A DNA stretch of 52,081 nucleotides. Source: Akkermansia muciniphila. GTDB taxonomy: Bacteria > Verrucomicrobiota > Verrucomicrobiia > Chthoniobacterales > Chthoniobacteraceae. Positions 8,271-39,100 of this stretch are shown here, piece by piece. Under the pieces are notes generated by a model. That model had not been told where the DNA came from, searched no databases, and saw nothing but the letters and a program-made list of their open reading frames with translations. A program made the position numbers and the translations under genes. Each line of letters starts with the position of its first letter. Position 1 is the stretch's first letter. The DNA is taken from positions 1-52,081 of the forward strand of contig CAMCIN010000001.1 in the NCBI GenBank assembly GCA_945874745.1. Direction: 5' to 3'.

Positions 8271-8288
8271 GCCACAGGGGGACTGGCC

Positions 8289-15100: not shown

Positions 15101-18100
15101 GTTGGCATCGTTGGTCTCCTGCACTCCCTTAAGATTGAGCGTGGAGGCGTTTTCTCCTGCCAACACCTTCCAGCCGCGGGTGCGGTTGTCCTGCACAAAC
15201 CATTGGAAGGGTTTACTCTCCAGCAGTGCCCCGGTCCACGAGGCAGTCAAGGTGACTTCGCCTCCGGGATTGACGGCGGTGGGACTGACCGTCACGCCCG
15301 TGGGGACCACCGGCCTGAGAACGGTTACGCGGGCGATCTCGGAGCTGATGGCCGCGGCGGAGTTGCGCACTTCGAGCCTGTAGTCCCCATCGTCTGCATC
15401 GGTGACACCAAGGACGTCGTAGGTGCTGGTGGTGGCCCCCGGCATCTGCAACCACTCGGTGGTGCCCGTCGGGCGGAAGAACCACTGGAAGCGGGTATCC
15501 CCGGTGACAAGGACGCCGGCACTCAAGGTTGCGGTTTCGCCGGGAAGGCGGACCTGGGATTCGGGCTGCTGCTTGGTGCCTGGGATGGCTCCGTCGAGGA
15601 AGACCGGGGCCGCCACGACCACGAGTTTCCAGGGGATAATGTCGAGGAGCTTGGTGCCGTCGGCCAGTGAGATAGTGGCCACGTATTCCCCCGCATCATT
15701 GGGAAGGACATTGCGCACCACGAGGGTCGCCGCGTCGGCGCCCTTGGAGGCGGCGGAGATTTCCTTGCCGTCGGTACGGCGCCAGGCGTAGCGGAAGCCG
15801 TCACCGATGGCGTAGGAGCGCAGGGTGACGGTGTCGCCTTCGTTGGCAAAGAGGGTCTGCTGGAGTTTGCGCTGGGCGATGTCGGCTTCCGTGGTGGGCA
15901 GCCCGATGGGATCGGCTGCGTTGACGAAGACGAGTGCGGGGATGCTCATGGTCGCTGCGTTGGCATCCGACACCACCACGTAATAGTAGCCGGTGTCTTC
16001 GGAGGCGACGTTGGCAAGGGCCAGCGTGTCCTGGGTGCCACCCGCGACCAGCGCGCCCGCCTTTGTGCCGTCGGTGCGGTACCAGGCGTAGGTCAGGCCC
16101 GTGGCAACGGGCGGTTTCATCGCGACCTTCAAGGTCACGGTCTGGCCGACGCGCACGGATTGGGCTGCGGGCTGCGTAAGGATCTCAGGGCCGCCATCGA
16201 CCTTTTTGAGTTCGAAATCCTTCACCGTCACGGGCTCTCCGCCCAGGGGTCCGATGATGCTGACCTGGTACTTGGCAAAGTCTCCAGCCCCAACGGGGGC
16301 TAGGGTGAGGGTGTCGCCCGTGGCTGCAAGCGGTTCCAGGCCGCTGAGGCCGACGCGACTCCAGCTGTACTGCAGCGGGCCGGTTCCTGCGGCGAGGACG
16401 CGGAAAACGGCGCGCCCACCAAGCGGCGCGCTCTGGCTGGCGGGCACTGCGAGAAGGCTGACCTTTTCAATGACCTGAACGCTGATTTTGCGCGAGAAGA
16501 CGCGCCCGATTTCAACGGCGCCCGAGGCGTCGAGATAGTTGCGCACCTCCAAGTCGAAGAGGCCCGTATCAAAGACGCTGAGCTTCGCACGGGAAAGTTC
16601 CGGCTTGGTCTCGCCGGCCAGGATCACCCCGTTTCTGCGCCACTGGTACTTGAGGACGCCGTCACCGCCTGCAGTCACGGCAAGATTGAACGTGCCGCCC
16701 TGGGCCAGTTTCAAGTCGCCCGGTTCGGTCACAATAAAGGCGGGCACGCTCACGGAAAGCGTGGTGATCTTGGACAGGACGCCGGCGGGATCCACCGGGT
16801 TGGCCACGCGCGCCTGATAGTCGCCGGAGTCGGCTGCTGCGACCCCGCGGATCCGGAGCACCGGGCCGTTTCCGCCTGGGATGGGCGCGCCGTAGCGCAG
16901 CCACTGGTAGTTGAGCGGCCCGGTCCCGGTGGCCTCGACACGGAATTCGACCGTGGCGCCCGGAGTGGCGGTCTGCACGGTGGCTTCCTTGGGAGAAACG
17001 AGGGTGACGGGCTTGTTGACGGTGACGCGAGAGAGCGTGCTGGTGAGGCGTCCGGCCGGGCCTGTGACGACCACCATGTAAACGCCTTCGTCAGAAACGG
17101 CGGCCTGCTCGAGGCGCAGCGTGCGGCCTGTTTTTCCGGCGAGGACTTGGGAGGCGCGGCCGATTCCCTTGACCCACTGGTAGGTGACGCCCTCGCTCAA
17201 ATTGGTGGCCACTGAGAGTTCGATGGGCTGGCGTGGGTTGACCGTCAACCGGGCTTGCGGCTGGGTGACGATGCGGAGTGCTTCGCGCACTTTCAACTCG
17301 ATGGTCTTGCTGGTGGCGCGCTCGCTGCCGTTGGACACCACCACATCGTACAAACCGGCGTTCTTAAGCTGGATGGAGGGGAGGTCCAACTGGGGCCTGA
17401 CCGCGCCGTAAATGTTTACGCCGTTCAACCGCCACTGGTAGCGGTAGGCGCCGCTCAGGTCGGAGGTGGGAGTCGCAAGGAACGACAGGCGTTCGCGCAA
17501 GTTCATGCTCACCACGCTCGCGCTCGGTGACAGTGTGATCTCGATGGGCAGCGTGACCTTGAGCGTCACCTGGGCCGTGCGCCCCGTCTCGGAGTTGTCG
17601 TCCTTGGCCAGAAGCTCGTACACGCCAGAATCAGAGACGGAAGCCGCGTCAATGGTCAGCACGCCCGTCACCGCATTCACGCTGCGGCCCGCTCCTGAAA
17701 CGGGCAGTTTTGTGCCATCCGGCTGAATCTTCGTCCAGCTGAGCACCAGGTTGGCTCCGCCCGAGACCACGGGCACTAGGAGCGCGCGCTGGCCGGGGCG
17801 GACCGTTTGCGGCGCCATGGGAGCGATGGTGGGCGGGGCAAGCAGCTTCAGCAGGGTGGCGGCTGAAATGACCCGTCCCTTCTCCTCGCCCTGAACCGTG
17901 GCACTAATGACCGCGTCGTAGATGCCTGCGTCGGAATCCACAATCTTGGCAATGGAGTAGGAGGAGGCGTTCGCCCCTGGGATGGCAACCCCGTTGCGGC
18001 GCCACTGGAAGGCGATGGTGTAGTCGTCGCTCGGCTCAACGTACTGGGAGAAGACGATGGACTCGCCCAGCTTGCGGACTTCGACGCCATCCTCGGGAGC

Positions 18101-21100
18101 GGTGGACAGCGGGGCAACTCCACCCGAGGGAGCGGCGCCCTGACGCGTCAGTGAGAGGGCGGTGAGCGTACGCAGCTGCACCTCCGGAGTGGTGACGCTC
18201 CCGTAACCATTGCTGACGCGCACGGTGAAGCCGCGTGCCGAAGTCGACTTGGCGACGTTCTTGACGACCAACGAAGCCGTCTTGGCCCCCTCGATCACGT
18301 TGAGCTTCGTCCCAACCGGGGAGTCCGTAAGCAGAGCCCCGTTGAGGTACCATTGGTACTCGAGTTCCGTGGCGCTCCGCGCTGCCACCTTGAAGCTGGC
18401 CGCATCGCCAACGTTCACCACCTGGCGTTCGGGCGCCGTCTTAATGATGGGCATGCCCTCCACGGAGAGCAGCGCGGGCAAGCTGGCCAGCGTGCTTGCG
18501 GCACCCGAGACGACCACATCGTAGGCACCGGCGGAGCCGATGTTGGAGGCATCACCGAGCTCGGCCACAGCGATCTTGAGGGTGGCCGAACGCGTGCCGG
18601 AGATGCCCTTGGCAGGGGCATCCTGAAGCTCCACCCCGTCCTTGCGCCACTGGTAGGACAAAACAAACTCGCCATCGAGCGGAGTCCCTGTCGCTGCCAC
18701 GGTGAAGGAAACCGGATCGCCGGCCTTCACTGTTTTGAGCAGCGGCTGGGAAGTGATGGCCACCGGCACGGGCAGGAGTGCTTCTGCAATCGCGCTTTGC
18801 TCGGAGCCGGCGAGATTGGAAACAATCACGTCGTAGCTGCCCGCGTCCGCGGCGCTGGCCTTGGAGACAGAGAGGCTCGCCTCGGTGGCGCCCTGGATGT
18901 CCGTGCCGTTTTTGCGCCACTGGTAGGTGAGGGGCTCGTCGCCGGAAGCCTGCACCAGGAGGGTAAAGGGCTTATCAAGCGTGAGCGCGGTCCGGCGAGG
19001 CTGCTGTTCGATGAGGGCCGGGAGGCGCACCTTCAAAAGACCCGAGGCGCTGAGCGAGGTGCCGAGGGAATGGTTGACCTGCACGTCGTACGTGCCTTCG
19101 CGCGCCAGTTTGTCGGCGGCTGGCGTTGCGCCCTGGGCGGCCAGGACCCTGTACACGGAGGAGGTCGCCCCGGAAATGGGTGCGCCATTGCGGCGCCACT
19201 GGTAGGTCAATTCCGAGCCCTTGGCCACCACTGAGAAGACAGCGACGTTGCCGGGATTGACGACAATCAATGGCTCGGGCTGGCCCTTGGGATCAATGAC
19301 ATCCAGTTCGCGCACCGCGACGGCCGCTTCGCGGGAATAGACGCTACCCCGGGCGTTCTGGACCCACAGCCGGTAGAGGCCGGCGTCGGTGGGACGCGCT
19401 GGGCTGAGGGAGAGCTGGACATCGGAAGCGCCGCTGATGGCACTCCAGCGCCCTGCGCGGAAGCGCTCCCACTGGTAGCTGAGCGTCCCGGCCTCCAAGG
19501 CCTGGGCCTGCAACAGTGCGGTGCCGCCCGCGGTGAGCGAGATGTCCTGGGGCTGGCCATTGGAGGAGAGCTGAGGCACGGGCAGGAGGCGCACGGCCAC
19601 GGGCACACTCCGCACGGTGCCTAGATCCAAAGTGCCGTTCCGCCCCGAGACTTCCACAAAGAAGGTGCGAGCCACGTCGGTAACATTCGCCATCGTATAC
19701 GCATTGGTGACAGCGCCTGGAATTTTTGCAGAGCCCTCGTACCACTGGTAGGTTAGTTCGCCATCCCCGATGGCGCGCACTTCGAGTCTGGCTGTTCCCT
19801 CGCCCTGCAGCGTGGGAAGCACCTGCACCTGGGGCACCGGGGGCACGGTGATGGTGGCAGGCGTGAGCACCGTCAACGTGGCGGACTGACTCGAGACGGA
19901 GGTGGCTCCGCTGCTGAAGAGCACATCGTAAGCCCCTGCGTCAGACAGCTGCGCGGCTTTGAGCACCAAGGTGGGAGAGGTGGCTCCGGGCACGTTGACC
20001 CCGTTGCGCCGCCACTGGTAGCGAAGCAGCGAACCGGTGGCCCTGGCTTCAAGCACCGCCAACGTTCCGGCCAGCGTGGTCACCGACTTGGGATAGGCGG
20101 GATCGACTTTGAGCGCGTCGTTCAAGCCGATCACCGCGGCGTTGGAGGTGACCTTGTTAATGGAGTTGCTCACGATCACGTCGTATTCGCCTTCGGTGTC
20201 TCCGGTGAGACTTGGGATGACAAACTCCGCGGTGTTGGCGAGGGGAATGGCGACGGTGTCTTTACGCCACTGATAGGACAACGGCGCAAGGCCGGTGGCC
20301 GTCACCAGCAGCTTCACGGGGGTGCCGGAGTTTGCGGTGCGGCTGAGCGGATGCACGGTGATGGCGACAGGCGCCTTCACGGTGAGGAGCTGCGCGGCGC
20401 TGGTGGCTTCGTTGACTGCGTTGGCAACCTTGACGGAGTAGGAGGCTGTCGCGGCAGCATCTGTGGTGAGGGAGTAAGTCTGCCCCGTGCCATTCTGAAG
20501 AATCTGCACGCCGTTCTTGAACCACTGGTAGGTCAACGGGGCTGTTCCCTTGGCGGAGGCAATCAGCGGCAGCACCTGGTTGAATTCGACCAGTCCCGTA
20601 CCCGGAGTAAACTGCACCTCGGAGACCGGCTCGCGCACGGAGAGCAGGGCTTCGCCACTGGTCTTGGAGCTGAGCACCTTTCCTGTAAGGGAATCCGTGT
20701 TGGAGACACGCACCGAAATCTTGGCACCGGAATCGGCGGCCTTGACCACCGGGAGGGTGTAGGCCGCAGCGGTGGCCCCGGAAATGGGGAGCCCGTTGCG
20801 CAGCCACTGGTACTTCAGTTCGCTGCCTGTGGCGGCGACCGAGAAGGGCACCTTGAGCTGGCCGGGGTTGAGGACCACGGTCCCTTGGGGCCCGGACTGA
20901 AGCTCAACCGCCTGGAGCACCTTGAGGGTGGCGCTGCTCGAAACGGAGCTGAACGTGTTGGCCGCTTCAACGGTGTAATCTCCGGCGTCGGAAAGCTTCA
21001 CGGCGGGCAGGGAAAGGGTCTGCGCGGTCTGGGCATCCAAAGACACGGCACCGCGCTTCCACTTGAAGGAGAGAGCATTGCCGGTAGCGGAGAAGCTCGA

Positions 21101-24100
21101 CCAACGGAGTTCCTGGCCTTCCAACACGGTGAGCGGCAGCAGCTGGTTTTCGAGCACGGCGGGGCGCTGGTTGAGCGCCACCCGCTTGGCTTCGGAAGCG
21201 CGCGAGCCCACCTTGTTGCTGACGACCACGTCGTAATCGCCCTCGCCGGCCGCGCCGTTGAGGGTGAAGCGCAAGCTTGAAGCCGTCCCTCCCGAGACAA
21301 CGGAGACAGATTTTGGGTCCAAGGGCACCCCGTTGAGCCGCCACTCAAAGGTCAGGGCAGACAAAGACTGCGCTGTCACGGCGAGATCGATGGTTCCACC
21401 CGGGGCCGCCACAAGACTGCCCGAGGAAGTAAGCGCACCAACCACTGGGAGTTGCTTGACGGTGAGCAGGACCGGCGTTTCGGTCAGGTCGGTGGCTGAG
21501 GCCGGCGTGAGTGCACCCGAAAACTGCGCCTTGTTGGAGACCCGCACCGTGTAGGCCGCCTCGGTGGCGCCGTTGGCCGCCAATTCGGCAGCGACCACCT
21601 GCAGGCTGGCCTGCGTCCCGCCAACGATGGCCTCGCCTCCCTTAAACCACTGGTAGTCAAAAGGAGCAGTGCCTTGGGCGCCCACAGAAAGCGTCACGGT
21701 CTGGTTCGGGTTGAGCGCCTGCGCCTGCGCGGCGAAGGGAATCCGCTCGATTTTAACCGGCTCAAACAGAGCCAACTGGACTTCCTGAGTGGTCTGTTTG
21801 GTGTCGACAAAGGCACCTGCAAAGCCTCCGGAGACGATCTCCACCCGATACCTGCCGACGGTGCGGTCACTTGCTTTCTTCACTTTGAGAAGCGGCGTCG
21901 TCGTGCCCGCGTACAGGTCTCCATCGCTGAGGGCCTGCCACGCGCCAACCACCGGGAGATAGTACCAGCGGTAATGCAGCTCGTAACCTGCGGCTGTCAC
22001 GCCGAAGGCCGCCTCAGCTCCTTCGGGCAACTGAAGGCTTTCAGGCTGTCTGGTGATGTTGACCGAGTGGACGGTGAGCGTGCCTGAGGCGACTGTCGCA
22101 CCGTAACTGCCTGCGGAAACCAGCACCTCGTACACCCCGGCCTTGCCTGCCGCGGTGTCCGTGGACTCCAGCGGAAGGGCAGTGAAAGCGAGCACCTGCT
22201 TGGTTTCGCCCGGCAAATCCACGCCGTCCCGGCGCCACTGGTAAGTGAGTGGGGCGTCACTGGTGACCAAGGCTTTCCAGCCCGCCTTGGTGCCGGCGGA
22301 AAGCGCCCAGGAGAGCGGCTCAAAGCTCACCACCGGTTTGCCCACCAGCACCGTCAGATCCGAGGACACCGCCGACCTGGAGACGCCTCCCGCAGTGGCG
22401 GTAGCTTTCAAGTGGTAGGTGCCAGCATCGGTGGCAAGACCTTGCAGCGACAGGGTCGAGGAGGTGGCGCCCGCAACCGCCACCCCGTTTTTGAACCACT
22501 GGTAGCCGGCGGAACTGACGAGGTAGCCGTCCAAAACCACAGGCACGCTCACGGGATTGCCCGTGGTAAAGAGGGAAGCCATGGGCTGCGTGATAATCTC
22601 CACCCATTCCCTGACTCTGACGCTGGTCACACGGCTTTCGACTTCGCCTGCAAAGTTAGAAACGACTACGGAGTAATTATTTGAGCCAGCTGCCAAAACC
22701 TTTCCGATCTTTAGCGTTGAAGACGTGGCACCTTCCAAAACGAGCCCATCGCGTTTCCAGACGAACTCCGGCGCCGGCACGCCCAGAGCAGAAACCGAAA
22801 GCTCCACATCGTCACCAATCTTGGCGTCCACGGCGGTGGGCTGTGTGACAATCGAAGGCGCAAGGCCGTACACCAATTCTGCGGCTTGGCTGAGCACGGT
22901 GCCGACCGTATTGGAAACCTCCACCGCATACTGTCCGGCGAGACTGGCCTGCATCGTCCCGAGGTTGAGTGTGGCTGCGGTTCCCCCAGAGACGGCGGCA
23001 CCGCCCTTGAGCCACTTGTACTGCAACGTGGGCGAACCCGCGGCCAAAACCGTCAACTGCACCGGGTCCCCGGGCTTGACGATGCCCCCGGTGGGCTGGA
23101 CCAGAATGCTTGGTGAAATCTCAGGCCCGATGGTGAGCGCGGCGTTTGCCGAGCCCTGGTAATTGGGATCCTCGATTGTGGCGACCACGAGGTAGTTACC
23201 GTTGCGGGTGGGCCTGTCTGTCTTGCCGGCGTAGGTCACTGAGCACGTGAGCCCGGCGGGCACCGTGGTGTAGGTCAACCCATGGGGCAGACCGTCATAG
23301 TCGACGGAAGAGGCTCCCGCGAGGGTGACAGTGGCTGCCTTTTTGGCCACGACCAATGTCTGCTCGATGGCGGCGGCGGGGTAGAATCTGGCATCCCCGT
23401 TCTGCGTGGCGCGGACGAGAATCGGACCCGCCCCCATGATCGTCAGAGTGCCGTCGGAGACGCTGCCCGAACCGCTGACCACCGTGTAACCCACGCCGAG
23501 GCCGGAACTGGCGGTGGCGCCCAGTACGACGGGTGCGTCCAGGTAGGTACGCTCGGCGAGTTCGCCAAAGGAGATGCTCTGCGAAGCGCGGTCCACGCTG
23601 AAGCTGCGATCCACGTCCGGCGCGGGCAAATGGTTGGCATCGCCCGGCTGGCTGGCGCGGACCAGCACGGTCCCACCGGCCGTCAAAACCAACGAACCGC
23701 CGCTGAGCACGGCGGGCCCGCTGACATGGCTGAAAGTCACGGGCAGCCCCGCACTGGACACCGCTGAGAGATTGAGGGCCGCATCTCCAAAGACCTTCGG
23801 ATTGAGCGACTCAAACGTGATGGTCTGCGCCTTTTTGGCGACCACAAAGGACTGCTCCACGCTTTGGGCCGCCAGATAGTTGGAGTCCCCCGCACGGGTC
23901 GCAAGCACCACAACCGTGCCGGCGCCCGTGACCGAAACCACATTCCCCTGCCCGAGCGTCGCCGGCCCGCTCACGCTGAGGGTCACCGGCAAACCGCTGC
24001 TGGCCGCTGCACTCAGCGCAAAGGAAGCGTCCCCGAAGGTGCGGCCCGCCAGCGCTCCAAAGAAGATTTCTTGGGCCGACTTCGCCACCGGGATGGTGAA

Positions 24101-27100
24101 GAGCGCGGAGCCGGGCAGGTAGTTGGCGTTGCCCGATACCGACCCACGCACCACCAGGGAGCCGGCCCCCAGCAAGCTTGCGGTATCACCGATGACCTCA
24201 CCCGGGCCGCTTACATAGCTAAACGTCACCGGCATCCCGGAGTTGGCAGTGCCCGAAAGGACAAACGGGTTGTCCCCGAAAGTCTTGGCGGCCAACGCCC
24301 CCAGCTGGATGACGGGAGCCGCGGGCAGGACGGCGAGCGTCTTTTGGACCTCGGGCGCGGCCAGATACTCCGCGTTCCCGGCCTGGATGGCTTTGAGCAC
24401 CAGGGTGCCCGTACCGAACACGCGCAAGGTGCCTCCATTCAGTGCTCCCGGACCGCTCAGGAGGGCAAACCCCACGGGCAGCCCGGAAGTCGTCGCTGCG
24501 CTTAGGGTGAAGGGCGCGGGATCGAAGTCCTTGCTCGCGGGCAAGTCGAAGGTGAGCGCCTGGAACTGGCGGTTAAAGACCAGCGTCCGGACCACCGGTA
24601 GCGCGGGGGCGTAGCTTTCGTTTCCTGGCTGGCTAGCCTGAATCAAGACGGTGCCGGTGCCGGAGAACACCAGCACGTTACCCTCGATGATCGCGGGACC
24701 GCTGAGCTTGGTCCAGGTGATCGGCAAGCCGGAAGAGGCCTGTCCCAAGAGTGACAGAGACCCGTCGGCAAGCACAGCGTCTGCAGAAAGTTCGGGCACC
24801 TCGAGAGCCTGGACGCCCCTGGTTGTGTAGGCCATTGAGAGCGGCCCTGCGGAGGCGGAGATGACTCCGGAGCCGACCTGGACGGGGGTCGACCGGTTTG
24901 TGGTGGACTGGTCCCCGAGCTGGCCGGAGGTGTTGAGGCCCGTGCCATACAACTGCTCCTCGGCGTTGAGTACGAACGTGGAATTGCCACCGGCGAATAC
25001 CGCTTTTCCAAGCAGGCTCAGCGACTGGCCCACCCGCACCGCGGCGGCCCGGTCGGTGGTGGTGCCGTCGCCCAACTGGCCATAGGCGTTTGAGCCGGCG
25101 GCCCAGACCATCCCGTTGGAGGTAAGCCAGACCATGTGCTGTGCGCCCGCGGCAACCGCTGTCACGGAGGAGGCCACCTGCACGGGAACGAGTGCATTGT
25201 CGGTGCTGCCGCCGGTGCCGAACTGGCCTGAGGCGTTGGACCCGGCCATCCACAGGGTTCCGTCCGTCTTGAGGAAGGCGCTGGTGCTGGCTCCGGCGGC
25301 GATCGCCTTGACTTCGGAGAGGACCTGCGCGGGAACGAACCGGCTGGTGGTGGTGCCGTCGCCCAAGGCCCCCGAGACATTGGCTCCCGCCGCCCAGACG
25401 GTGCCGTCAGCCTTGAGGTAGAGGGTGTAGTTGTCCGCCGAACCGGCGCTTTTGGCGACCGCCACGACGTTGGAGGCGATCCGCACGGGGCTGATCCGAT
25501 TGGTGGTCGTGCCGTCCCCGAGTTGGCCGTAGCTATTGAGTCCCATCGCCCACAGCGAGCCGTCAGTCTTGAGGTAGTGGGAGGACTTGTCCGCACCGGC
25601 GGCGGCGGAAAGCACGTCGGAAGCGATCCATACGGGCGTGGTCCGGTTGGTGGTCGAATTGTCGCCCAGCTGGCCTGCGGAATTGTCGCCCATGCCCCAG
25701 AGGCTGCCGTCGCGGGTGACAAACAGGGTGTGGAACTGGCCGGCGGAGCTTTGGAGCACCGTGGCAGTGTTCCCCAGCGAAACGGCCTGGACGTCGGACT
25801 GGAGCTCGAGGATTTCCGCCGCGCTCAGGGCACGGGCATACACCCGCACTTCGTCCATGGCGCCGCTGAAGAAGTCGGAACCGGCGCGGAGATCCTTGCC
25901 GAGCACAAAGTCGGTGGCGACATGGGCCACATCGGCGCCGGTCACGGTGCCTGCGGGCTTGCCGTCGACATAGTAGGTGCCGCGCGTCCCGTCTTTGACG
26001 AACGCGATGTGGCGCCAGGAGCCGGAATTGACCGCCACGCTGGAGGGGACGCCGAAGAATCCATAGCTGCCGTTGTAGTCCCAGTAGTGGAGGCGGCCAT
26101 CTGCATCGAGGGTCAGGAGCTGCTCTCCGTTGAAATTATTCGCACTGCGACCCATCGAGAAAATGGTAGCGTTGACGCCACTGGTTTTGATCCAGGCGGT
26201 AAAGGTCATCTGGTGGTCAGGCGCGGCGGTGAGACTCGCGCGCTGCACAAAGCTCGAAGTTCCGTTAAAGGCGAGGGCTCCTTCTGTGCGTCCATCCCGG
26301 CTGGTAGTGAGCGACACGAAACTCAGAGGGAGGTGCTGTGCATACCCGGAGGAATCGTTACCGTTGCCGTCGAAGCGGTAGGCCGCCAGCAACGCGGGGT
26401 CGGGATAGCGCGTCAAAAGCGTTGGCGTGCTGCGGTTGGTCGTGGTGCCGTCTCCCAACTGCGCGTTTGCGTTGAGGCCGGAGAGGTAGAGCTGGCGGCC
26501 CACGGTGTCGCGCACTGCGACGCGAGCGGTGTCCGAACTGACCGAGTCAAAGGGCCCGGTGACCTGCACCCGGTAGTTGCCGGGATTCAGCTGCGGATCG
26601 ACTTGGAGCACCGGTACGGTGGCACCGCTGAGGGCGAGCCCGTTGAGATACCACTGGTAGGCGAGATGGTAGCCGGAGGCCGCCACGCTCAGAACCGGGT
26701 TCATTCCCGGGAGGGAGAAGATGGAGGCCACGTTGGACTGGATCGTCGTCAACGAGGCGGGCTCGCCAAGGTAGGCGGAGTAATTCCAGCCTGCAGACAT
26801 CCCCAGCCCGTCTGCCACCAGCACCGGGTAATTGCGGTTGGTCGTGGTGCCGTCGCCCAGCGTGCCGGAGCCGTTGTAGCCAAGTGCGAACGTCGCACCA
26901 TCGTTGCGGCGAATCAGCGTGCTTGCGTTGGAACAGGAGACCGCTGTGGCGTTGGCGAAAGGCGCGCCTGAGGAAGCAGCCACACGGGCAAAGACGTTCC
27001 GTGAAACCGTCGACCCATCGCCGAGCTGACCGTAGGCATTGCTGCCGCCGGTCCACACCGTGCCATCCGTCTTCACAAAGGCCATGTGCTGCCAGCCGGC

Positions 27101-30100
27101 TGAAACCTGGGCGACCCCGGTGGCCACCTGGACGGGAACAGTCACGTTTGCGGTGCTGCCGTTGCCGAATTGACCATCCCCGTTGTAACCGGTTGCCCAG
27201 AGGGAACCGTCGGTCTTGACGAACGCGGAGTGGTAGGCACCCGCGGAAAGGGAAGCGACCCCGGAGGCGATCAGTACGGGCACCCTGCGCGTGGTGCTGG
27301 TGCCATCGCCCAGCTGACCGTAGCCATTGCTGCCGATTCCCCAGAGGGTGCCGTCGGCCTTAAGGAACAACACAAACGGCTCAAAGACGCTGGAAACCTT
27401 GCTGGCGTCGACCGCCACCACGTTGTCTGCAATCCAGGCCGGACGCAGCCGCTGCGTCGTGGTGCCGTCGCCCAGTTGGCCGGCATCATTGGCGCCCACG
27501 CCCCAGAGACTGCCGTCGGTCTTGATGAAGTAAGACGAGCCCTGGCCGCCGTTGAAGTTCGAACCGCTTGCCGCCGCCTGCACCACGTCGGAGGAAACAA
27601 ACACCGCACGGGTGCGGTTGGTCGTCGTGCCATCGCCCAACGCGCCGTTTTGGTTCGAGCCCACCGCGAAGAGATTATTTCCAACGGTGACAAAGAGGGT
27701 GTGCGAGGCACCCGCGGAAACCTGCAGCACGCTGGAGACCCCCGAGGGAACGGGAGCCGCCGCCTGTGCGAACAGCAACGCAATCTCCGAGGCGCCCAGG
27801 TCGGTGTCGTACAAACGGACATCGTCCAACAGACCGGTGAAGAAACCGTTGTTGTCGCGCGCGTTCTTACCCAACACAAACCGCGCGACTCCGTAGGAGA
27901 CGTCCGCTGCTGCGCTGGCCGTTCCGGCAGGCTGACCGTCCACAAAGAAAGTCCCGTTCAGTCCGTTCTTCACAAAGGCGACATGGTGCCACTCTCCGTC
28001 GGCAACCGCCCCGGTGGAAACGGCGTTGAAGCCCGCGCCGGTGCCCCAATCCGAGAAAGCGAGGTTTCCAGCTTCGTCAATGTAGAGCTGGAACGAATTG
28101 TTGACGGAGGACTCTGTCCGGTTCAGAGCGGCAATCACCGCGTCCGTGCTGCTCGTTTTAATCCACGCCGCGATGGTCAGCCGCGAGTTTGGTGCAGAGG
28201 AAAGAACCGTCCTTTCCAGATAGCCACCGGAGCCGCCGTCCAGTCGGGCGGCCCAAGTCTGCTGGCCGGAGGGTACGGCAACATAGCTGTAGGTCACACC
28301 ATTAAAGGCGCTGAGCGTGCTGCCGTTGCCGGAAAAGTCCGTGCCTCCGGAAGAGAAACTATAGCCGGCCACCACAGGAATCGGGCTGCGCGCCACATAC
28401 GACGGGCTGGTCCTGTCCGAGGTGGAGCCGTTTCCAAGCTGCCCATAGTTGTTGTTTCCGGCGGTCCAGAGAGGAGCGGCCTCCTCTGCGGAAAGGGTGG
28501 GCGCAACGCGTACGGTACGGGAGGGGGTCACGCCGAACTCGGAGGAGACTTCCACGCGATACGAAGCAGCGGAAACGACAGAAGAAATATTCAGGGTGCT
28601 CTGGGTCCCACCCTCGATGGCCGTTCCATTCTTGAACCACTGGTAAGCAAGCGTGCCAGGGCCCGTGGCGCCCACCGCGAGGGTCGCATCTGTCTGGGGT
28701 GCGACATACTGGGTGAACGGCTCCGCGAGGATGCTCGGCACCGGGTTGGCCTCGATGATAACGGCCGCGAGACTGCCTCGGTTGGGGGCGGCACCGGGCT
28801 GGCCCTGAATGGTGAGGGTGCCGCCGGTCAGTCCGGTCAGCTTCCAGAAGTTGCCGCGCCGTCCCTGCTGTGCGTCGATCTGAATCCACTGCTGGCCCGC
28901 CGCATCCCAGGAGCCGTATGCCGGCGCCTGTGCGGGGGAAGCCCCGCCAAACACCCAGGTGCCGTTCACCCGGAAGTCCAACGTGTTGTAGGGATTCGCC
29001 GCGCTGTCGCTGGCCACCAACCCATACACGTTGTAGCTGGGGTACGGGATGTTGGCGACGGTCACTGCGGCGCCGCTGCCGTCGTTGAGGTAGCCATAGA
29101 GAAGGCGCCCGTTTTGAGTGGTGGTGGCGGCGCCGGTCCGGCCGGTGCTCGCGGCGCTCCAGCTGACACTGAGAGGCGAAGCAAAGCCTGTGTCGTCCTG
29201 TAGCGCTGTTGTCGCGCCCGTGGCGGCGCCGGCGTTGGTGAGGTTCCACACGCGCGTGCCCAGCGGGCCCTTTGGCGTGGTCGCATCAAGGGTGTCCAGC
29301 GCGCTGTCTGCAAAGTGAAGCGCCAGCGTGCGCGGCACATCGTTGACGTTTACCACGAGGGGAGCCGTTGCCGTACCGCCCGCGTTCACAACGCCCAAGG
29401 TGATGGTGTAGGTCCCGGCGCTGCCGACCGAACCCGAAAGCACTCCCGTTGCGGCGTTGAGGCTCAGGCCGGAGGGCAGGCCCGATGCCGTGAAGGACGT
29501 CGGCTCGTCGGTGGCGGTAATCTGGTAGGAGAACGCGCCCCACGCTCCTGCGGAAACGGCGAGCGGACTGGTGATAGTCGACTTCGGCCCGCCGGTTGCG
29601 CCGTTGGCCCACTTAAGGCGGAACTCCGGCGTCAGGTTGACCACGTTGCCCGAGATGGCGTTCGAAAGCGTGAGCGGCGCGTTGAGCGAGAAGGCAAGGG
29701 TGGCGCCCTGAGACACCACGAGCTGCCCGGTGCCAGGCTTGGCGCCGGCGCCAAAGCGGAGCGTGCCAGCCTGCACGAACAGGCTGCCGGTGTTGGTGCT
29801 CACACCCGCGAAGGTGGCCGTACCGGAGCCGGTTTTGAGGATCGCACCGAGGCCGCCCAAAACATTGGGCAACTCAATGTCGGTGTCCGCCGCCACAATC
29901 AGAGCCGCGCCCGAGGCAACCGACACGGGCCCCGTTCCAAGGCCGTTCGAAAGTGAGACACGCAGGGAGCCCGCGTTGATTGAGGTCCCGCCGGCGTAGG
30001 AGTTGGCGCCGGTGAGCGTAACGGTGTGGGAGTTGTTCTTCAGTAATGAGCCCGCGCCGGTGATCGAGTTGGCAAACCCGTAGTTCTCAATACCAAGCAC

Positions 30101-33100
30101 GGCATCAGGCCCGGCGACGGTGCTCGCGGCGATGGATGCTGCGTCCAGCGCCTTGTTCCACATCCTCAGTTCCGAAAAAGTAGCGGCGGAGGTGGGATCT
30201 CCATAGTGGGAACGACCCAGCCAGAAGACACCCGAGGGAACTTGGGACAGGGTCCGGCCTGCTTCCGAGAACTGCGCAAGCAACACCCCGTCGCGGTACC
30301 AGCGGACCACCGCGTTTGCCGAATCCCACACCACGGCGTAGTGGTACACCCGCCCCAGAGTTGTCACCACCGGAGAGGACGGAGCGATGTTGCCGCTTCG
30401 GGCGGTGTCACAGATGATCGGGTTGGCGATGTCGGTGCCGTTGGCAAATGCGGTGAGGAACGAGGTGTTTGTGTTCACCCCGTCTCCCAACTCCAGAATG
30501 CGTGACCAAGCTTGGACCGCATCAAGGGAGGCCCAGACTTCCATGGTGAAATCCGTCAGCCCGGCCAGCAGGTTGGCGGGCATGCTGATGTAACTGGCCG
30601 TATCCCGGGCGCCGCCCTGCAGCTTGACCCCGCCTGCGGTAAAGGAGGCGTTGCTTGTGCTTGCGCCGGAAGGCGTCGCAATTGCGCCGTGGGCGGTGCC
30701 GATGGAATCTGCAAGAAGGGTGCCGGCCAGTTCGTTGAAGGACCAGCGGTGGATCAATCCGGGCGGATTGGCCGTATTTGCATCGAGTACTACGGTGGTG
30801 GACGAGCCGGTGGACAGAGTCCCCAGTCCGGCGGCGTTTCCTGCCTTCAGCAGCAGGGAGCCTTCGGCCAGGGTGAGGGAGGAAAGGTCGCTCGAGCCCG
30901 CCAGCAAGAGGGTGCCCGCGCCTGTCTTCATGAGCGAACCGCCGCCCGTGAGGGCGCCGCCCACCTCGAGCACCGAGGCGTTCACCTGCACGGTGCGTTC
31001 GCCCGTGAGTGAAACACTCCCTGTTCCCAGGTTCAACGGGGCGGACCCCACGAAGCCGAAGTCGCCCGTCCAGATTTGGTTGAGTGTGCCCGAAAGGGTC
31101 AGGGCCGCTCCGGACACATTGTCGAGGAAGCCACCCGAGATCGTCAGCGCACCGGTTCCAAGCGCGGAAGCCCCGCCAAGCGCCAGGGTGCCGTCGGCCA
31201 GCGTCGTGCCGCCCGCGTAGGTGTTGGTCCCGGACAGAATCCACATGCCAGTCCCCTGCTTCCAAAGCGCCGTGGTATGGGTGGTGCTGTGGTTGGCAAT
31301 GACGCCCGAGAGCAGTGCGATTCCAGCCGTGGAACCCTGCAGCGTGAGCGTTTTGGAACCCGCGCCCGTCGCAGTGACGCTGCCGGAGAAGGTGAGCAAG
31401 CCCGCTCCCGAATGGTCAAGCACCCCGCCGCCGGTGGTGCCCGCGAGGTTAATGACCCGGTCGGTGGTCTGCGCACTGCCGGTGACGCGCAGCAACCCGG
31501 TGGAGGCCAGGCTACCGAGGTCGATGGTGCCGTTGGCCGCGGTGAGCGGCGCTCCGAGGGAACTCGAGGCCGAGCCACCGCTGACCTTGTTGAGCGAGGC
31601 AACCGAGAGGGCGCCGCTCTGGATCCAAGTCTTCCCGGTGTAGGAACTGGTGCCCGTGAGCACGATACTGCCCAAGCCCGCCTTGGTCAGACTCGAGGAA
31701 CCCGACAGGAGGAGAGAGGTGCTGCCCGTAAGATCGCCCGCACCCAGCACGGCGTTGGCGCCGGGGGCGTACACCAGCGCGCCCCCGCCGGTGAGGTTGG
31801 GCGTGGACGCACCACTTTGGAGCAACACCGTCGTGCCAGTGGCTGCGTTGATCGTGACTCCGGCGGGCAGCGCGTACGCGCCGTTGAGTACGAGGGTGCC
31901 CGCGGTGAGATTCACCGGACCGGTGAAGGTGTTGGTTCCGCTCAGGATCAGCGTGCCGGCGCCCTTTTTGCCGAGCGCGTAGGCTCCGGAGACGTTTGCG
32001 ACGGACAGCGTACCCGAGGAGACCGTCACCTCAGTGTCCGCGTTCAGGAGCACCGACCCGGCACTCGTGTCGAGTATCCCGGTGCCCGCATAGGCGAAGT
32101 CGCCGTTCCAAACCTGGACCATCGAAGCGAGCGTGACCGGTGCGGCGATACCCGAGGCTTCGATTAGAATAGCCGCCAAACTGCCACGGCCACCCTGGCC
32201 CGTATTGCCGTTGATCGTTGCCGTCGCACCGCTGAGGTTGCTCACTTTCCAGTAGTTCCCCCGCCGCGCGCTGGCGACGTCGATCTGGATCCATTTACTC
32301 CCTGCGGCTGCCCAGGAGCCGAAGGCGGGAGCCAGCATGGGAGAGGCGCCACCGAAGACCCAGGTGTTGTTCACCCTAAAATCTTGCGTGTTGTAGGGGG
32401 TCAGGTCGTTGTCGCTCGCAACGATACCGTACAGATTATAACTGGCGTAAGGAATGTTGGTGATCGTCACCGTGTTGGGTGAGTCGTCCAAATAACCGAG
32501 CAGGATTCTGGCATCCTGAGAACTCGTGGCCGTGCCGTTGACCCGCCAGGTGTTGCCGGTGGTCCACGCCACATTCACCATCGAATTCGCCCCCGTGTCA
32601 TCGGACAGCCCCGTCCTGCTTCCGGAGGCCTCCGCCGCCGTTGCGTTCCAAATTCTGGTGCCCAACGGTCCCTTCGGGGTCGTGGAATCAAGCGTTTCCA
32701 GGGACACGTTGTCTTTAAAGTCCAGCGCCACCACGCGGGAGGTGATTCCCACGGCGTTGATCGCAGCGCCGGGATAAATGGTGAGTGACCCGGTTCCTAG
32801 TGCGTTGGCATTGGTGATCAGGAGCGTCCCTTCATACACCGTCGTCCCACCGGAGTACGTGTTCGCGCCCGAAAGCGTCCAGATACCGGTCCCGCGCTTG
32901 GCAACCGCCGTCGTGTTGGTCGGGCTGTTGTTGGCGATGGCACCCGAAATCTCGCCGGTGCCGGAAATCGACCCCTGCAGTGTGAGGGTCTTCGCACCCG
33001 CGCCGGTGGCCGTCACGCTGCCCGTGAAAACGAGCGCGCCCGTGCCCGACTGGTCCAGCACGCCGCCGCCGGTGGTACCCGCGAGGTTGATGATCCGGTC

Positions 33101-36100
33101 GGTGGTCTGCGCGGGCCCGGTCGCCACGAGCGAACCGGTGGCGGTCAGACTGCCAAGGTCGATGGTGCCGTTGGCCGCGGTAGTCGGAGCCCCCAGCGTA
33201 CTCGACGCCGTCCCGCCGCTGACCTTGTTCAGCGTGGCGACCGCGAGGGCGCCGCTCTGGATCCACGTCTTCCCTGTGTAGGAATTGGCCCCCATCAGCA
33301 CGATGTTCCCCAGGCCCACCTTGGTGAAGGTGGAGGAGCCCGAAAAGACGAGACCGGTACTTCCCGAAGTGTTGTTGGCACCCAGGGTGAGAGGAGAGCC
33401 GGGGGTGATTACCAGACTGCCGCCTCCGGTGTAGCCCATAAGCATCGCACCATTCTGGAGCAGGACCGTGGCCCCCGGGGCGATCGAGAGCGCCGAGTCC
33501 GTTGAGACCGACCCCAGACCCGAAAACACGAGCGTGCCGGCATTAACGGCGGTGAAGCCGGTGTGGGTGTTGACACCCGAGAGCGTGACGGTACCCAAGC
33601 CCGACTTGACGAGATTGACCACGCCTCCTCCGGAGAGCGAACCGTTAAAAGAGGCGGAGCCCCCCGTCAGGTTCAACGCCAGCGTCCCTGCGCTCAGACT
33701 GTTTGTGTTGAGGACGACGCCGCCCCCGCCCAGGTAGTCGGAGAGCGATTTGACGGTCTGGCTGCTTCCGTTGAGGTCGAGGGCCGCTCCCGTCCCCAGT
33801 TTGACTTCGGTGAGGCTGGGCAAGACCCCGGGACCGCTTGCGGAAATCGTGCCGGTGTCAGCCACCAACCGGAGGGTGCCTGTGGTGACCACCGTGGCTC
33901 CCTGATACGCCAGCGTGCCGGAGAGGGAAACCACCCCGGACCCGGAGACGAGCAGCGTCCCCGAGCCGCTGATCGGGTTGCCATAGGCCCCGACTGAGCC
34001 AGTAGCAAAGCCCAGGTACGCCCCGTTGGAAAGGGAGACCGCACCGCTGCCAAGCGCCCCGTTGGCGCCCACCCACAGACTGCCGCCGGTAACGGTCGTG
34101 CCGCCTGTGTAGGAGTTGGCGCCCAAAAGGCTCGCCTGATCCGTGCCTGTTTTTTGCACCGAACCGGCACCCGTGATCTGGTTGGAAAGATTGAGCGGCG
34201 AAGTGAAGACCGCGTCCGGGCCGGCAGCCGAGCTGGCAGTGACCTCGGCGGCGGACAGCGCCCGGTTCCACATCCGCAGATCGTAATACGAAATGTTCCC
34301 GTTTGATCCATTGATCGACTTTCCGAGCCAGAACACCGCACTGGAAACCTGAGAAAGCGCGCGTCCGGCTGTCGATGTAGACGCCAAAAGCACGCCGGAA
34401 CGGTAGTACTTGATTAACGAATTCTCAGCATCCCAGATCAACGCCCAGTGGAACATCTGTCCCACGACACCGGTCACGGCGACGGTGGACACCACCGGAT
34501 TGGCGAGGTCCAGGGCGGCGAAACTCGGATACCCAGAATCGTTTCCATTGCGGAAAAGCGCCGTCAGCGAAGTGGCGACAGAGACGCCGTTGCTGATTTC
34601 AAACATACGCGAATAACCTCTCGCCACATCCTCGGAGGCCCAAACCTCAAGGGTCACGCTGGTCAGGCCGTCCAGCAGGTTGGGGGGAAGGGACACATAA
34701 CTGCCCAAGCCCGTCACATTGATTTTTCCGGCGCCCAAGGTCGTGTAGCCTGTATTTCCGGAAATATCCACGATGGCCGCGTGGGAGGTTCCGACTGAAT
34801 CCGCGAGGACATTGCCGGCCGCCTCGTTGAAGGACCATCTGTGGATGAGGCTTGCAGGGTATTGCACCTGGGTTCCGAGCGAGAGCACCGTCCCAAGCGT
34901 GGTCGACACCGTCCCCGTTCCAACGGCGTTTTGGGAGTTGAGCAGGAGCGTGCCGCCGGTGAGGTTGACCGCGGCAAAGCTGTTTGAACCCGCCAGCACC
35001 AGCGTGCCGGCGCCGGCCTTGGTCAGGGCGCCGTCGCCCAGGATCGAACCGTCAAACTGGAGGGTCGATGCGTTGACCACGATGGTCCGGTCCCCGCTCA
35101 TTCCGATGGTGCCGGCCGAGAAGCTCAGGCTGTTGGAGCCAAGGAAGCCGAAGTCCCCCGTCCAGGACTGGACGAGCGGCGTGGAGATCGTCAGAGCGGA
35201 GCCGGACGCGTTGTTGAGGAAGCCGCCGCTGATGGTCAGCGTGCCCGTGCCGAGCGCGCCGGCGTTCCCGAGAGAGAGGGTCCCCGCGGCAAGCGTCGTG
35301 CCGCCCGAATACGTGTTGGCCCCGGAAAGCGTCCAGGTGCCGGTGCCCTGTTTGAGCAGCGCGGTGGTGTTCAGGAGGCTGTTGTTGGCGAGGACGCCGG
35401 AGAGCTGGCCGGTCCCCTCGGTGGAGCCCTGCAGGGTGAGCGTCTTGGAGCCCGCGCCCGAGGCCGTGAAACTGCCAGTAAGCAGCAACGCTCCCATCCC
35501 GGACTGGTCGAGCACGCCGCCGCCGGTGGTGCCGGCGAGGTTGAGCGGACGGTTGGAAACCTGAGCGGTGCCCGTCAGCACAAGAGACCCGGTGGAAGTC
35601 AGTGAACCCAGGTCGATGGTGGCACTCGTCAAGTCAACCGGCGCCCCGAGGGAACTCGTAGCGAGGGCGCTTACATAAGTGGAAGGCACGCCCTTGCGAA
35701 TCGTCCCGTTCGAGTAGTCTGCCAGGTAAAGATTCCCAAGCGCATCCAACGAGATCTGGGCCGGAGCAGAGAACGTGGCGACAGTGCCCACCCCGTTTCC
35801 GTTCCCGGCCTGCCCGCTGCCGCCAATGGTGCTGACCAGCCCGTTGGGGCGAATCACCCGTACGCGGTTCCCGCTGTGCTCGGTCACATACAAATTTCCG
35901 GATCGGTCAAATACGACGCCAAACGGATGGTTGAACGTGGCCGTCTCTTTGGGGCCGTCGACGGAGCCCGCAACCAAGGAGCCCGCAAAGGTCGTCACAA
36001 AACCCGCCGGGGTGATTTTGCGGATCATGTTGTTGACCTGATCTGCGGCGTACAAGTTTCCCTCAGCGTCGAGGGCAAAACAGTCCAGGTATCTAAAGGT

Positions 36101-39100
36101 GGCCACCGTGCCTGCCCCGTTTGTGTCGCCCATGGCTCCCGAACCCGCCAAGGTCGAAACGACCCCGCCAGGGGTGACCTTGCGGATCTTCTGTCCCGAG
36201 CGGTCGCCCACGTAGACGTTGCCGTTTGAATCCACAGTGAGTCCCCACGGGTCGTTGAAGGAAGCCGCCACGCCCACGCCATCCACACTGTTCGCGACAC
36301 CATTTCCGGCCACGGTCGAGACCAACCCAGCGGTGGTGATTTTCCTGAGTTTGTGGTTTCCAGAATCCGCCACGTACACGTTGCCCGCGTTATCGAGCGC
36401 GACCCCCTTGGGTGCGGTAAAGCGGGCAGCGGTGCCCAAACCGTCCGTGGTTCCGGAGCTGCCCTGCGCTCCGGCGAAGACGGTCACCACCCCGGCGGCG
36501 GTCACCTTTTTAATGCAGTGGCCATCCGTAACATAAACGTTTCCAGCGGGATCTGCCACGGCTCCAAAGTTGGCGGTGAACCCCGTCGCCAGTGTAGACC
36601 AGGTGTAGGACCCGCCCGTAAGCGCGTTCAACGAAGCAGCCCACAGCGCGCCCTGTTGGATCCAGGTCTTCCCGGTAAAGGAAGCGGGATCGGTTAGGCT
36701 GAGGCTGCCGGTGCCCACCTTGGTGAGCGAGGAAGAGCCGGAAAGGATGACGCTGGAACTTCCTGAAACGTTGTTTGCGCCGAACACAGCGTTCGCACCC
36801 GGCCCGTAGGCGAGGGACCCGGCGCCCACCACGTTAGGAGTCGTCGCCCCGTTTTGCAGGAGCAAGGTCGCGCCGGAGGCGAGGTTGATCGTGACGCCCA
36901 AGGGGAGCGCGTTTGGCCCGTTGAGGACTAGGGTGCCCGCCTCGAGGCTCAGAGGCCCAGAGAAGGTGTTGGTGCCCGAGAGAACGAGGGTGCCAGCACC
37001 GGTTTTGCCGAGAAGGAAGGCGCCGGAAATATTTGCCACGGTGAGCGTGCCAGCCGCAACACGCACCGTCGCGTGGGCATTGAGAGAAACAAAACCCGCG
37101 CTCATATCCAGCGCATTGGAGCCGAGGAAGGAGAAGCTGCCGCCCCAGATTTGGGGCATCGCACTCAGCGTGACCGCGGTGCCGGCATCTAGGGTGGTGC
37201 CATCGGCGATGGTGAACGGCCCCCTGCCCAGGGCGCTGTTGTTACCGAGGACCAGCGTGCCTTGGGAAAGCGTGGTGGCTGCGGTGGTGTTCGCGCCGGT
37301 CAGGAGCACCGTTCCCGCCGTTGTTTTGTTCAGCCCTAGGGAGGCAATCCCGTTTGTCGCCAGGGTGGATATCTCGGACCCGGAAAGGGTCCGCTGCCAG
37401 AAACTCACTTCGTCGATGTGTCCGACAAAATACCCTCCGGGAAAGCCGGCTAACGATTGCCCGATCGTGAATGGCCACGTCCCGGCCCCGGTCGCAACCG
37501 AGGGTTCCGACGCCCCTGCAAAGCTACCCGTTTTTTCCAGAACGCCATTTACGTAAAGGCTCAGGGTGTTGCTTCCGGAAACCCCGGTTACGGCAACGTG
37601 CACCCAGTTTCCCGTCCGCACATTGGAAGTCGAAACCACCGCGCCGATACCGTAGATGTCATAGACCACGTTTCCGGTAGAGTTGATGTAAAGAACTGGG
37701 GTGGAGCCGCCGGCTCCGGCAGACTTCCCAAAAATCACGTGGTTGGCCGTGTCTGTAAACCCGGTCCGGATCCAAGCGCTGACAGTGAAGGCCGTTAGGG
37801 CGTTCATGTTGAGATCTCCACCGGCCAGGGTCACCCGGGTCGACCCGTTAAAGTAGGCACTGGCCCCCCCCGCCCTAACCCCAGCCGGAACGGACGACGT
37901 AAAGGACCCTGTCCCCACCCACGTTCCTGAATGCGTTCCAACGGACGACCCGTCGTTTAGGTTTCCTTCAAAACTCAACTGCGCTTTCAAATTGGCTTCG
38001 AGGGAGGACTGTCCGGCAAGGCTCGCACTGACCAAGCCGCTCTGAAGCTCGAACACTTTCCCCGTCGTTGTCAGCGTCCCGTTGCGAATCGTCCCACCGG
38101 AAAGGATGATGGTTCCCGAGGTGGAGTGGCTGTAGCCCCCCAGATCCAGCGTCCCACCGGAAACCCTGATGTCGCCCGTGGTCGCCAGCCTGTCGGACCC
38201 ACCCGCGAGCGCCAGAATCCCCGACTCGACCGTGGTTCCACCGGTGTAACTGTTGACGCCGGAAAGCGTCCAGGTCCCGGTGCCCTGCTTGAGCAGCGCT
38301 GTGGTGTGGGTGGCACTGTTGTTGGCGATGGCACCGGAGAGCTCGCCGGTGCCCGAGGTGGAGCCCTGCAGGGTGAGCGTCTTGGCGCCTGCGCCGGTGG
38401 CCGTCACGCTGCCAGAGAGCACGAGCGCGCCGGTGCCCGACTGGTCGAGGACGCCGCCGCCGGTGGTGCCGGCCAAGTTGATCACGCGGTCGGTGGTCTG
38501 CGCGGAACCGGTAAGGACTAGCTTGCCGGTGGCCGCGAGACTCCCCAGATCAATGGTCCCGTTGGCGGCGGTAAGAGGCGCCCCGAGAGAGCTAAAGGCT
38601 GTCCCGCCGCTGACTTTGTTGAGGGAGACTACCGAAAGGGCGCCGCTCTGAATCCAGGTCTTCCCAGTGTAGGAATTGGCGCCGGTGAACACGATGCTGC
38701 CCGTCCCCACCTTGGTGAAGTTCGAGGAACCGGAAACCACAAGGCTGGAACTTCCCGAGTTGTTGTCCGCGCCCAAGAGAGCGGGAGAACCGGGCGAGAC
38801 CACCAGGCTGCCGCTTCCGGTGTAGCTGTTGAGCATCGCACCGTTCTGCAAGAGCACCGTGGCGCCCGAACCAATCGACACCAACGAGTTGGGTGACACG
38901 GCCCCAAGGCCTGAAAATACGAGTGTCCCGGCATTGACGGCGGTAAACCCGGTATGGGTGTTGGCGCCCGAGAGGGTGACCGTGCCCGCGCCGGCCTTCA
39001 CCAGATTGAGCGTGCCGCTTCCAGAGAGGGAGCCGCTGAAGGAGGACGCGCCCCCCGCCAGGTTCAATACCAACGTCCCTGCGCTGAGACTGTTTGTGTT

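Follow-up and report, generated by a model that had tools for sequence, protein, structure and literature searches.

The subject of this study is a pair of consecutive, paralogous modules in a giant protein encoded on the minus strand of a 52,081-nucleotide (nt) stretch of contig CAMCIN010000001.1 (the whole of this stretch is referred to below as the window). We consider it quite probable that each module is an RCC1 propeller of seven blades in which one inter-blade connection has taken up a complete LamG domain, used in this gene as a cassette, and that the LamG and the propeller together would act as a binding head. Module 1 comprises amino acids (aa) 7781-8441 (nt 26759-28741) and module 2 comprises aa 8442-9088 (nt 24818-26758). 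In each of them an Ig-like domain is followed by an RCC1 half-repeat, a complete Laminin_G_3 domain, and six and a half RCC1 repeats. The two modules align collinearly, with 43% identity over 637 residues (E = 6e-151), and have the LamG at the equal place. That there are two paralogous modules with the order Ig, RCC1, LamG, RCC1 had been claimed earlier from the DNA letters and their open reading frames (the original prediction), and translation, alignment, and Pfam searches confirmed it; the first-blade peptides named at that time, NNNYGQLGNGSTSDRTSP and LNANAQLGDGTTTNRSTP, are found in the translation. The parts of the two modules, as read here, are as follows.

28478..28741, minus strand: Ig-like domain of module 1 (aa 7781-7868), with a weak Pfam Ig_3 match (E 3.8e-4, below the gathering cut-off)
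28397..28477, minus strand: N-terminal RCC1 half-blade of module 1 (aa 7869-7895), strands C and D, PLWTAGNNNYGQLGNGSTSDRTSPSYV
27752..28396, minus strand: nested LamG (Laminin_G_3) of module 1 with its linkers (aa 7896-8110)
26759..27751, minus strand: rest of the propeller of module 1 (aa 8111-8441), namely the A-B half of the split repeat and six full repeats
26507..26758, minus strand: Ig-like domain of module 2 (aa 8442-8525), aligned with the Ig-like domain of module 1 and lying in an 85-aa gap between RCC1 matches
26417..26506, minus strand: N-terminal RCC1 half-blade of module 2 (aa 8526-8555), QLYLSGLNANAQLGDGTTTNRSTPTLL, covering positions 5-29 of the RCC1-repeat hidden Markov model (HMM)
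25781..26416, minus strand: nested LamG of module 2 (aa 8556-8767)
24818..25780, minus strand: rest of the propeller of module 2 (aa 8768-9088), ending in the A-B hairpin GVISASAGPLSMAYT

The propeller of module 1 likewise ends in an A-B hairpin, GLGMSAGWNYSAYL, and the sequence pattern of its Ig-like domain fits the Ig array found downstream. Both modules match the Pfam RCC1 family (PF00415) in seven stretches each, with 165.5 bits for module 1 and 166.4 bits for module 2 (cut-off 21.7), and the WD40_RLD family (PF25390) with 210.8 and 222.4 bits, respectively (cut-off 150). The GxLGxG signature occurs seven times per module, once before the LamG and six times after it, and a terminal half repeat closes each module (...SAGWNYSAYL and ...SAGPLSMAYT). 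Counted in hairpins, each module has seven C-D and seven A-B hairpins, with the LamG situated between the first C-D and the first A-B. The sequence repeats of RCC1 proteins are offset from the structural blades, such that the chain begins with the C-D half of the closing blade and finishes with its A-B half. In the RCC1-like domain (RLD) of UBR5, the first blade is completed by two C-terminal strands (bioRxiv 10.1101/2023.06.06.543850). By the same logic, the piece that precedes the LamG would be the 'velcro' C-D half of the closing blade, completed by the C-terminal A-B hairpin of the same ring, and the LamG would be spliced in after strand D of this half-blade, ahead of strand A of the blade that follows, looping out of the ring at the inter-blade junction. 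The pre-LamG unit had been taken for one whole blade of the propeller. Its assignment to the propeller is supported by our analysis; the unit itself is a half-blade (strands C and D) and not a whole blade.

An HMM of the RCC1 repeat, made for this analysis and scanned over the whole giant protein, gave the layout R-L-r-RRRRRR, then an 85-aa Ig gap, then r-L-RRRRRR. In module 1 the split repeat covers HMM positions 6-43 before the LamG and positions 33-48 directly after it, so that the split RCC1 envelope, which the original prediction had put forward as a check, is seen in this module. The scan of the whole protein found no RCC1 repeats besides the 14 of the two modules, apart from one spurious match with a negative score. 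When 27 canonical seven-repeat RCC1 domains were aligned with module 1, their first C-D hairpin fell on the pre-LamG piece and they picked up again immediately behind the LamG, so that a single long gap separated the two parts.

What argues most strongly for nesting is a natural indel in the homolog P0405, a partial protein of 1,755 aa from another Verrucomicrobia metagenome-assembled genome (MAG), which surfaced in the third homology search, with the length window set for large proteins. P0405 has the layout RRRRRRR, uninterrupted, followed by an 85-aa Ig gap and then rL-RRRRRR. Its first propeller is 52% identical to that of module 1 and 46% identical to that of module 2 when the LamG is removed from the latter two, and it is preceded by the Ig-end motif SSEFGVT, as in module 1. 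The second module of P0405 is 51% identical to module 2 and 44% identical to module 1, and has a LamG at the matching site. The first ring is contiguous over the junction, where ...TTSVVTP runs directly into VQAASNVVSVSVGGAHT... In the four-way alignment this module-1-like ring reads ...GNGGTTSVVTP and continues unbroken with VQAASNVVSVSVGGAHTLYIT..., and module 1, module 2, and the second module of P0405 each insert about 220 residues (LamG and linkers) at exactly that point. Because the first ring of P0405 is unbroken there, the half-blade and the downstream repeats belong to one RCC1 domain, and the LamG is a clean indel in its D-to-A connection.

The nested arrangement is kept in three orthologs from independent assemblies, L001 (90% identity), P0275 (95%), and P0377 (96%), two of which, P0275 and L001, come from MAGs labeled Chthoniobacterales or Chthoniobacteraceae. 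The junction was also recovered in P0405 at about 45-50% identity. Across the two modules, L001, and P0405, the half-blade is conserved as well as the other repeats are. In the original prediction, conservation in both copies was taken to argue against an accidental fusion; every element is kept in both modules at 43% identity, and the junction recurs in independent assemblies.

Module 1 (aa 7866-8445) was modeled by AlphaFold2 with a 35-row alignment containing few LamG rows (A3), which was chosen because alignments into which LamG-only rows from outside had been mixed proved unstable. Two other alignments (A1 and A2) were discarded, as MAFFT repeatedly put the outside LamG-only rows under RCC1 columns. 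The model has a mean predicted local distance difference test score (pLDDT) of 79.5 and a predicted template modeling score (pTM) of 0.67. The pre-LamG piece is modeled as two strands (model residues 6-10 and 25-30) with a pLDDT of about 88. For the C-terminal A-B strands the pLDDT is 83-93, for the ring core it is above 90, and for the LamG it is 60-86, with one disordered loop below 50. A Foldseek comparison of the model with the PDB returned UVR8, HERC2 RLD2/3, RPGR RLD, HERC1 RLD3, and RCC1, with E values down to 5e-29. The matches to seven-bladed propellers have a root-mean-square deviation of 2.4-3.0 Å and a template modeling score normalized to the target, TM(target), of 0.73-0.79; these scores come with no residue ranges and do not cover the superposition of the half-blade. 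Because the targets matched at TM 0.73-0.79 are seven-bladed, the post-LamG part takes the seven-fold geometry despite holding six and a half blades.

The LamG domains themselves are nearly full-length matches to Pfam Laminin_G_3 (PF13385), with 98.5 bits in module 1 (profile positions 3-151 of 151) and 96.1 bits in module 2 (2-150 of 151); the gathering cut-off is 27.6. In Foldseek searches the LamG model matched Limulus and human pentraxins, the neurexin LNS domain, perlecan LG3, and the sialidase CBM40, with a probability of 1.00 and TM(target) of 0.54-0.63. A concanavalin-A-like jelly-roll beta-sandwich fold is thereby confirmed for the LamG in a model of moderate confidence, which is silent on the ligand. 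On the central claim of the original prediction, a LamG nested in an RCC1 propeller, the hairpin count, the alignment of 27 domains, the indel in P0405, and the AlphaFold2 and Foldseek results agree.

Several points weigh against this interpretation. The LamG part of the models is built on 5-8 sequences only. In a truncation control, the half-blade and the LamG were folded without the ring (A4), with the alignment depth of the half-blade unchanged, and the pLDDT of the half-blade moved from 70/88/87 to 65/65/77 in ten-residue blocks. This modest fall is in the expected direction and lends weak support to a half-blade that would depend on the propeller; because the drop is modest, much of the confidence in the half-blade is independent of the propeller. 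The packing of the half-blade on the C-terminal A-B hairpin would thus follow mainly from sequence logic and from the indel in P0405. The indel may have either direction, a gain in module 1 or a loss in P0405, and the assignment of function draws solely on analogy. As to ring closure by C-D/A-B pairing, then, the sequence register fits, the half-blade is confident in the model, and the P0405 junction is contiguous, with a modest drop on truncation set beside them.

Could the pre-LamG piece be a vestigial orphan, with the six and a half downstream repeats forming a ring alone and the module amounting to a plain tandem of remnant, LamG, and propeller? A simple succession of LamG and RCC1 does occur in P0329, which has a signal peptide, a LamG, and then RCC1 repeats, without a half-blade, and in the truncation control the half-blade of module 1 still has a pLDDT of 65-77 without its propeller. 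We nevertheless regard this explanation as improbable. The downstream part contains seven A-B and only six C-D hairpins, and in both modules the half-blade supplies the missing one. The piece is also conserved like the other repeats, its homolog in P0405 is contiguous with its ring, and the geometry of the model is seven-fold, not six-fold. A different closure is permitted on paper by the linear order A-B, Ig, C-D, LamG, A-B, in which the last A-B hairpin of module 1 would pair with the first C-D hairpin of module 2, the Ig-like domain would be the nested one, and the LamGs would be plain connectors. This is highly improbable. It would leave the first C-D of module 1 and the last A-B of module 2 unpaired in a protein that has no further RCC1 repeat, and AlphaFold2 gives a confident half-blade with module 1 alone. 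An Ig domain has its two termini on opposite poles of its sandwich, which makes it a poor fit for a tight B-C turn. In P0405 the ring before the Ig-like domain already has seven complete repeats. Because this first ring is complete alone, the half repeat that follows the Ig-like domain belongs to the downstream ring, and the swapped closure with a nested Ig is therefore removed.

Giant repetitive genes are prone to misassembly, and the database contains one evident LamG/phosphoglucomutase chimera (P0270), both of which would speak for an assembly or gene-calling artefact, or for a decaying pseudogene segment without functional meaning. Such an origin is hardly credible for modules that lie in a single open frame of 13,322 codons and have diverged to 43% identity yet retain every element, and whose junction is found at 90-96% identity in L001, P0275, and P0377 and at about 45-50% identity in P0405.

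For the nested LamG, the question is then what such an arrangement might do. Each module would begin with an Ig-like spacer and continue as a single RCC1-type beta-propeller of seven blades, and the LamG and propeller together would form a ligand-binding head, most likely for a glycan or a cell surface, rigidly tied and held off the stalk of Ig and PATR repeats. By analogy, a binding head is the most likely role of each module; it is proposed because domains that loop out of propellers in integrins and UBR5 are binding modules, and because of the split domains of RTX adhesins.

In integrins with an alpha-I domain, the insertion point lies between blades 2 and 3 of the propeller. Alpha-I is described as a ligand-binding domain that interrupts a propeller of seven blades between two of them (PMC12422189). 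The likeness is one of analogy only, as the integrin is a metazoan receptor with an FG-GAP propeller and a von Willebrand A insert. The RLD of UBR5 also has whole foreign domains looped out of its ring (bioRxiv 10.1101/2023.06.06.543850). UBR5, however, is a eukaryotic cytosolic HECT E3 ligase, with UBA and double small-beta-barrel inserts inside blades 2 and 5, whereas the present modules have a LamG inserted at the first D-to-A junction, belong to an extracellular-type bacterial giant, and are duplicated. Pfam scans of the modules and of the whole giant protein found no HECT, UBA, or UBR families. The ligand-binding domains of RTX adhesins are recognized by their emerging from split host domains (PMC12077191). 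The RTX fibrillar adhesins, such as Lap of Aeromonas hydrophila, FrhA of Vibrio cholerae, and MpIBP of Marinomonas, resemble the present protein in being giant surface proteins with a binding domain that emerges from an interrupted host domain (PMC12077191, PMC10865825). The modules fit this description, having a LamG between the halves of a split RCC1 repeat within a giant multi-domain protein. They differ in that the host domain is an RCC1 propeller and that no RTX repeats were found by Pfam, whereas in the adhesins an Ig-like beta-sandwich plays this part, within an RTX protein exported by type 1 secretion. Canonical RCC1-like domains (RCC1, 1A12; UVR8, 4D9S; the HERC2 RLDs; the RPGR RLD; BLIP-II) share the repeat sequence, the seven blades, and the fold, but have a continuous chain with no nested LamG.

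Full-text literature searches for a description of RCC1 combined with LamG or Laminin_G_3 returned nothing relevant. The arrangement is apparently undescribed; the nesting of whole domains in propellers, RCC1-like ones included, is already established, as is that of binding domains in giant adhesins. No new mechanism or system is revealed, and the most useful by-product is the pair of propellers with and without LamG. This pair serves as a natural presence/absence control and makes the modules a clean bacterial addition to the few propellers in which a looped-out domain is tolerated. It also shows where an insertion is permitted, namely behind strand D of the RCC1 N-terminal half-blade, which is of possible use in protein engineering and in the annotation of split RCC1 domains. 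If the 'split domain' rule of the adhesins carries over, the arrangement suggests where ligand-binding heads are positioned in the huge surface proteins of Verrucomicrobia.

How widespread is the arrangement? In searches seeded on close relatives of the LamG, near-identical orthologs were the sole carriers of the nested form: none turned up among proteins of 319-1015 aa or in a metagenome scan, and a genome scan gave just the 90% ortholog. It took a length window suited to large proteins for the nested relatives to appear. A search with the whole module and a search of 1.84 billion representatives were dominated by summed RCC1 repeats; of the 269 top hits, a single one carried a LamG of this type, and that one was not nested. 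Among the LamG relatives, P0270 (366 aa, on a 1.2-kb JGI contig) is a LamG fragment 70% identical to the LamG of module 1 and fused in frame to the C-terminal part of a phosphoglucomutase, most likely an assembly chimera.

A different form was found in P0207, P0266, P0392, and P0144, which are giant RCC1 proteins of 4,200-5,300 aa with LamG interspersed. In the first three, scanned with a broad LamG profile, a LamG stands right after ...GQLG....NRSSPxxV (strand D), after which RCC1 resumes, and this recurs every 2-4 repeats; by Pfam, P0266 has eight Laminin_G_3 stretches among 35 RCC1 repeats and P0392 has two Laminin_G_3 stretches. As in the present modules, Laminin_G_3 directly follows RCC1 strand D in this group and the RCC1 repeats resume after it. 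The group differs in belonging to another sequence family (25-30% identity), in having a LamG every 2-4 repeats, and in a conserved extra tail of about 60 aa that trails each LamG (...YTGNFTPPTS.LT...); in at least one case the insertion is after strand C. Judged from their sequences, these four proteins may be propellers carrying several nested LamGs, and a LamG looped out of RCC1 arrays is a recurring, uncharacterized design in metagenomic giants, with the present protein as a tidy case. The RCC1-LamG-RCC1 order, for which the original prediction had suggested a database search, is thus not unique to this genome: close orthologs and P0405 have it, and other giants show a variant form of it.

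Besides the two modules, LamG domains occur in other parts of the giant protein. Two of them lie among its PATR repeats, as follows.

43133..43762, minus strand: PATR-embedded LamG copy (aa 2774-2983), between PATR repeats and not in a propeller
39230..39904, minus strand: PATR-unit LamG cassette (aa 4060-4284, about 225 aa), in one PATR super-repeat unit

The LamG of module 2 is 55% identical to the PATR-embedded copy and 40% identical to the LamG of module 1. This hints, on sequence comparison, that LamG cassettes moved between the propeller and PATR contexts. Counterparts of the PATR-embedded LamG were found in a Chthoniobacteraceae MAG (L002:3001-3615) and in a metagenome contig (L081:3001-3771). 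As for the second of the two cassettes, a paralogous PATR unit has a short linker (aa ~6075-6085, about 33830-33860) in place of the LamG, and the flanks of this indel are conserved (...LRLVA.TGT / ...S.PG.LP.LT...). With this indel in a PATR unit and the nesting in the propellers, the giant gene uses LamG as a plug-in cassette in different host scaffolds, PATR units and propellers alike. The cassettes may have moved by recombination.

A bolder version of this idea is that the RCC1 D-to-A connection is a general, reused 'socket' for LamG in the giants of uncultivated bacteria, with cassettes recombining in and out and with the LamG and the propeller face forming one composite ligand site. The observations that can be cited for it are the comparison of module 1 with P0405, the LamG copies shared with PATR units, and the LamG occurring every 2-4 blades in P0266 and P0207. 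We hold it to be doubtful and offer it tentatively.

The host of the two modules is the following open reading frame.

12113..52081, minus strand: giant open reading frame containing both modules; a mosaic of PATR, NHL, LamG, RCC1, and Ig

The frame is unbroken over at least 13,322 codons, and its 5' end runs off the window. A Pfam analysis of the whole protein identified PATR ("autotransporter-associated") beta-strand repeats, NHL propellers, Laminin_G_3, RCC1, an MBG domain, and a long C-terminal Ig array. With the broad LamG profile, 8 LamG copies were counted in the protein; its RCC1 propellers number two, both in the modules described here. Pfam found no enzymatic family in it. At E <= 0.001, Pfam also found no RTX/HemolysinCabind, autotransporter beta-barrel, or other export or anchoring family, the N-terminus being outside the window. 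The protein resembles a very long fiber, secreted or on the surface, of a freshwater member of the Chthoniobacteraceae (Verrucomicrobiota).

The genes that flank the giant open reading frame are ordinary housekeeping genes, namely folP, cdaA, a class I W/Y tRNA synthetase (tRNA-synt_1b), a rhomboid protease, and ilvD. Past this housekeeping block, on the downstream side of the giant gene, a second large PATR-repeat protein of at least 1,302 aa is encoded on the minus strand at 3-3908 and runs off the window.

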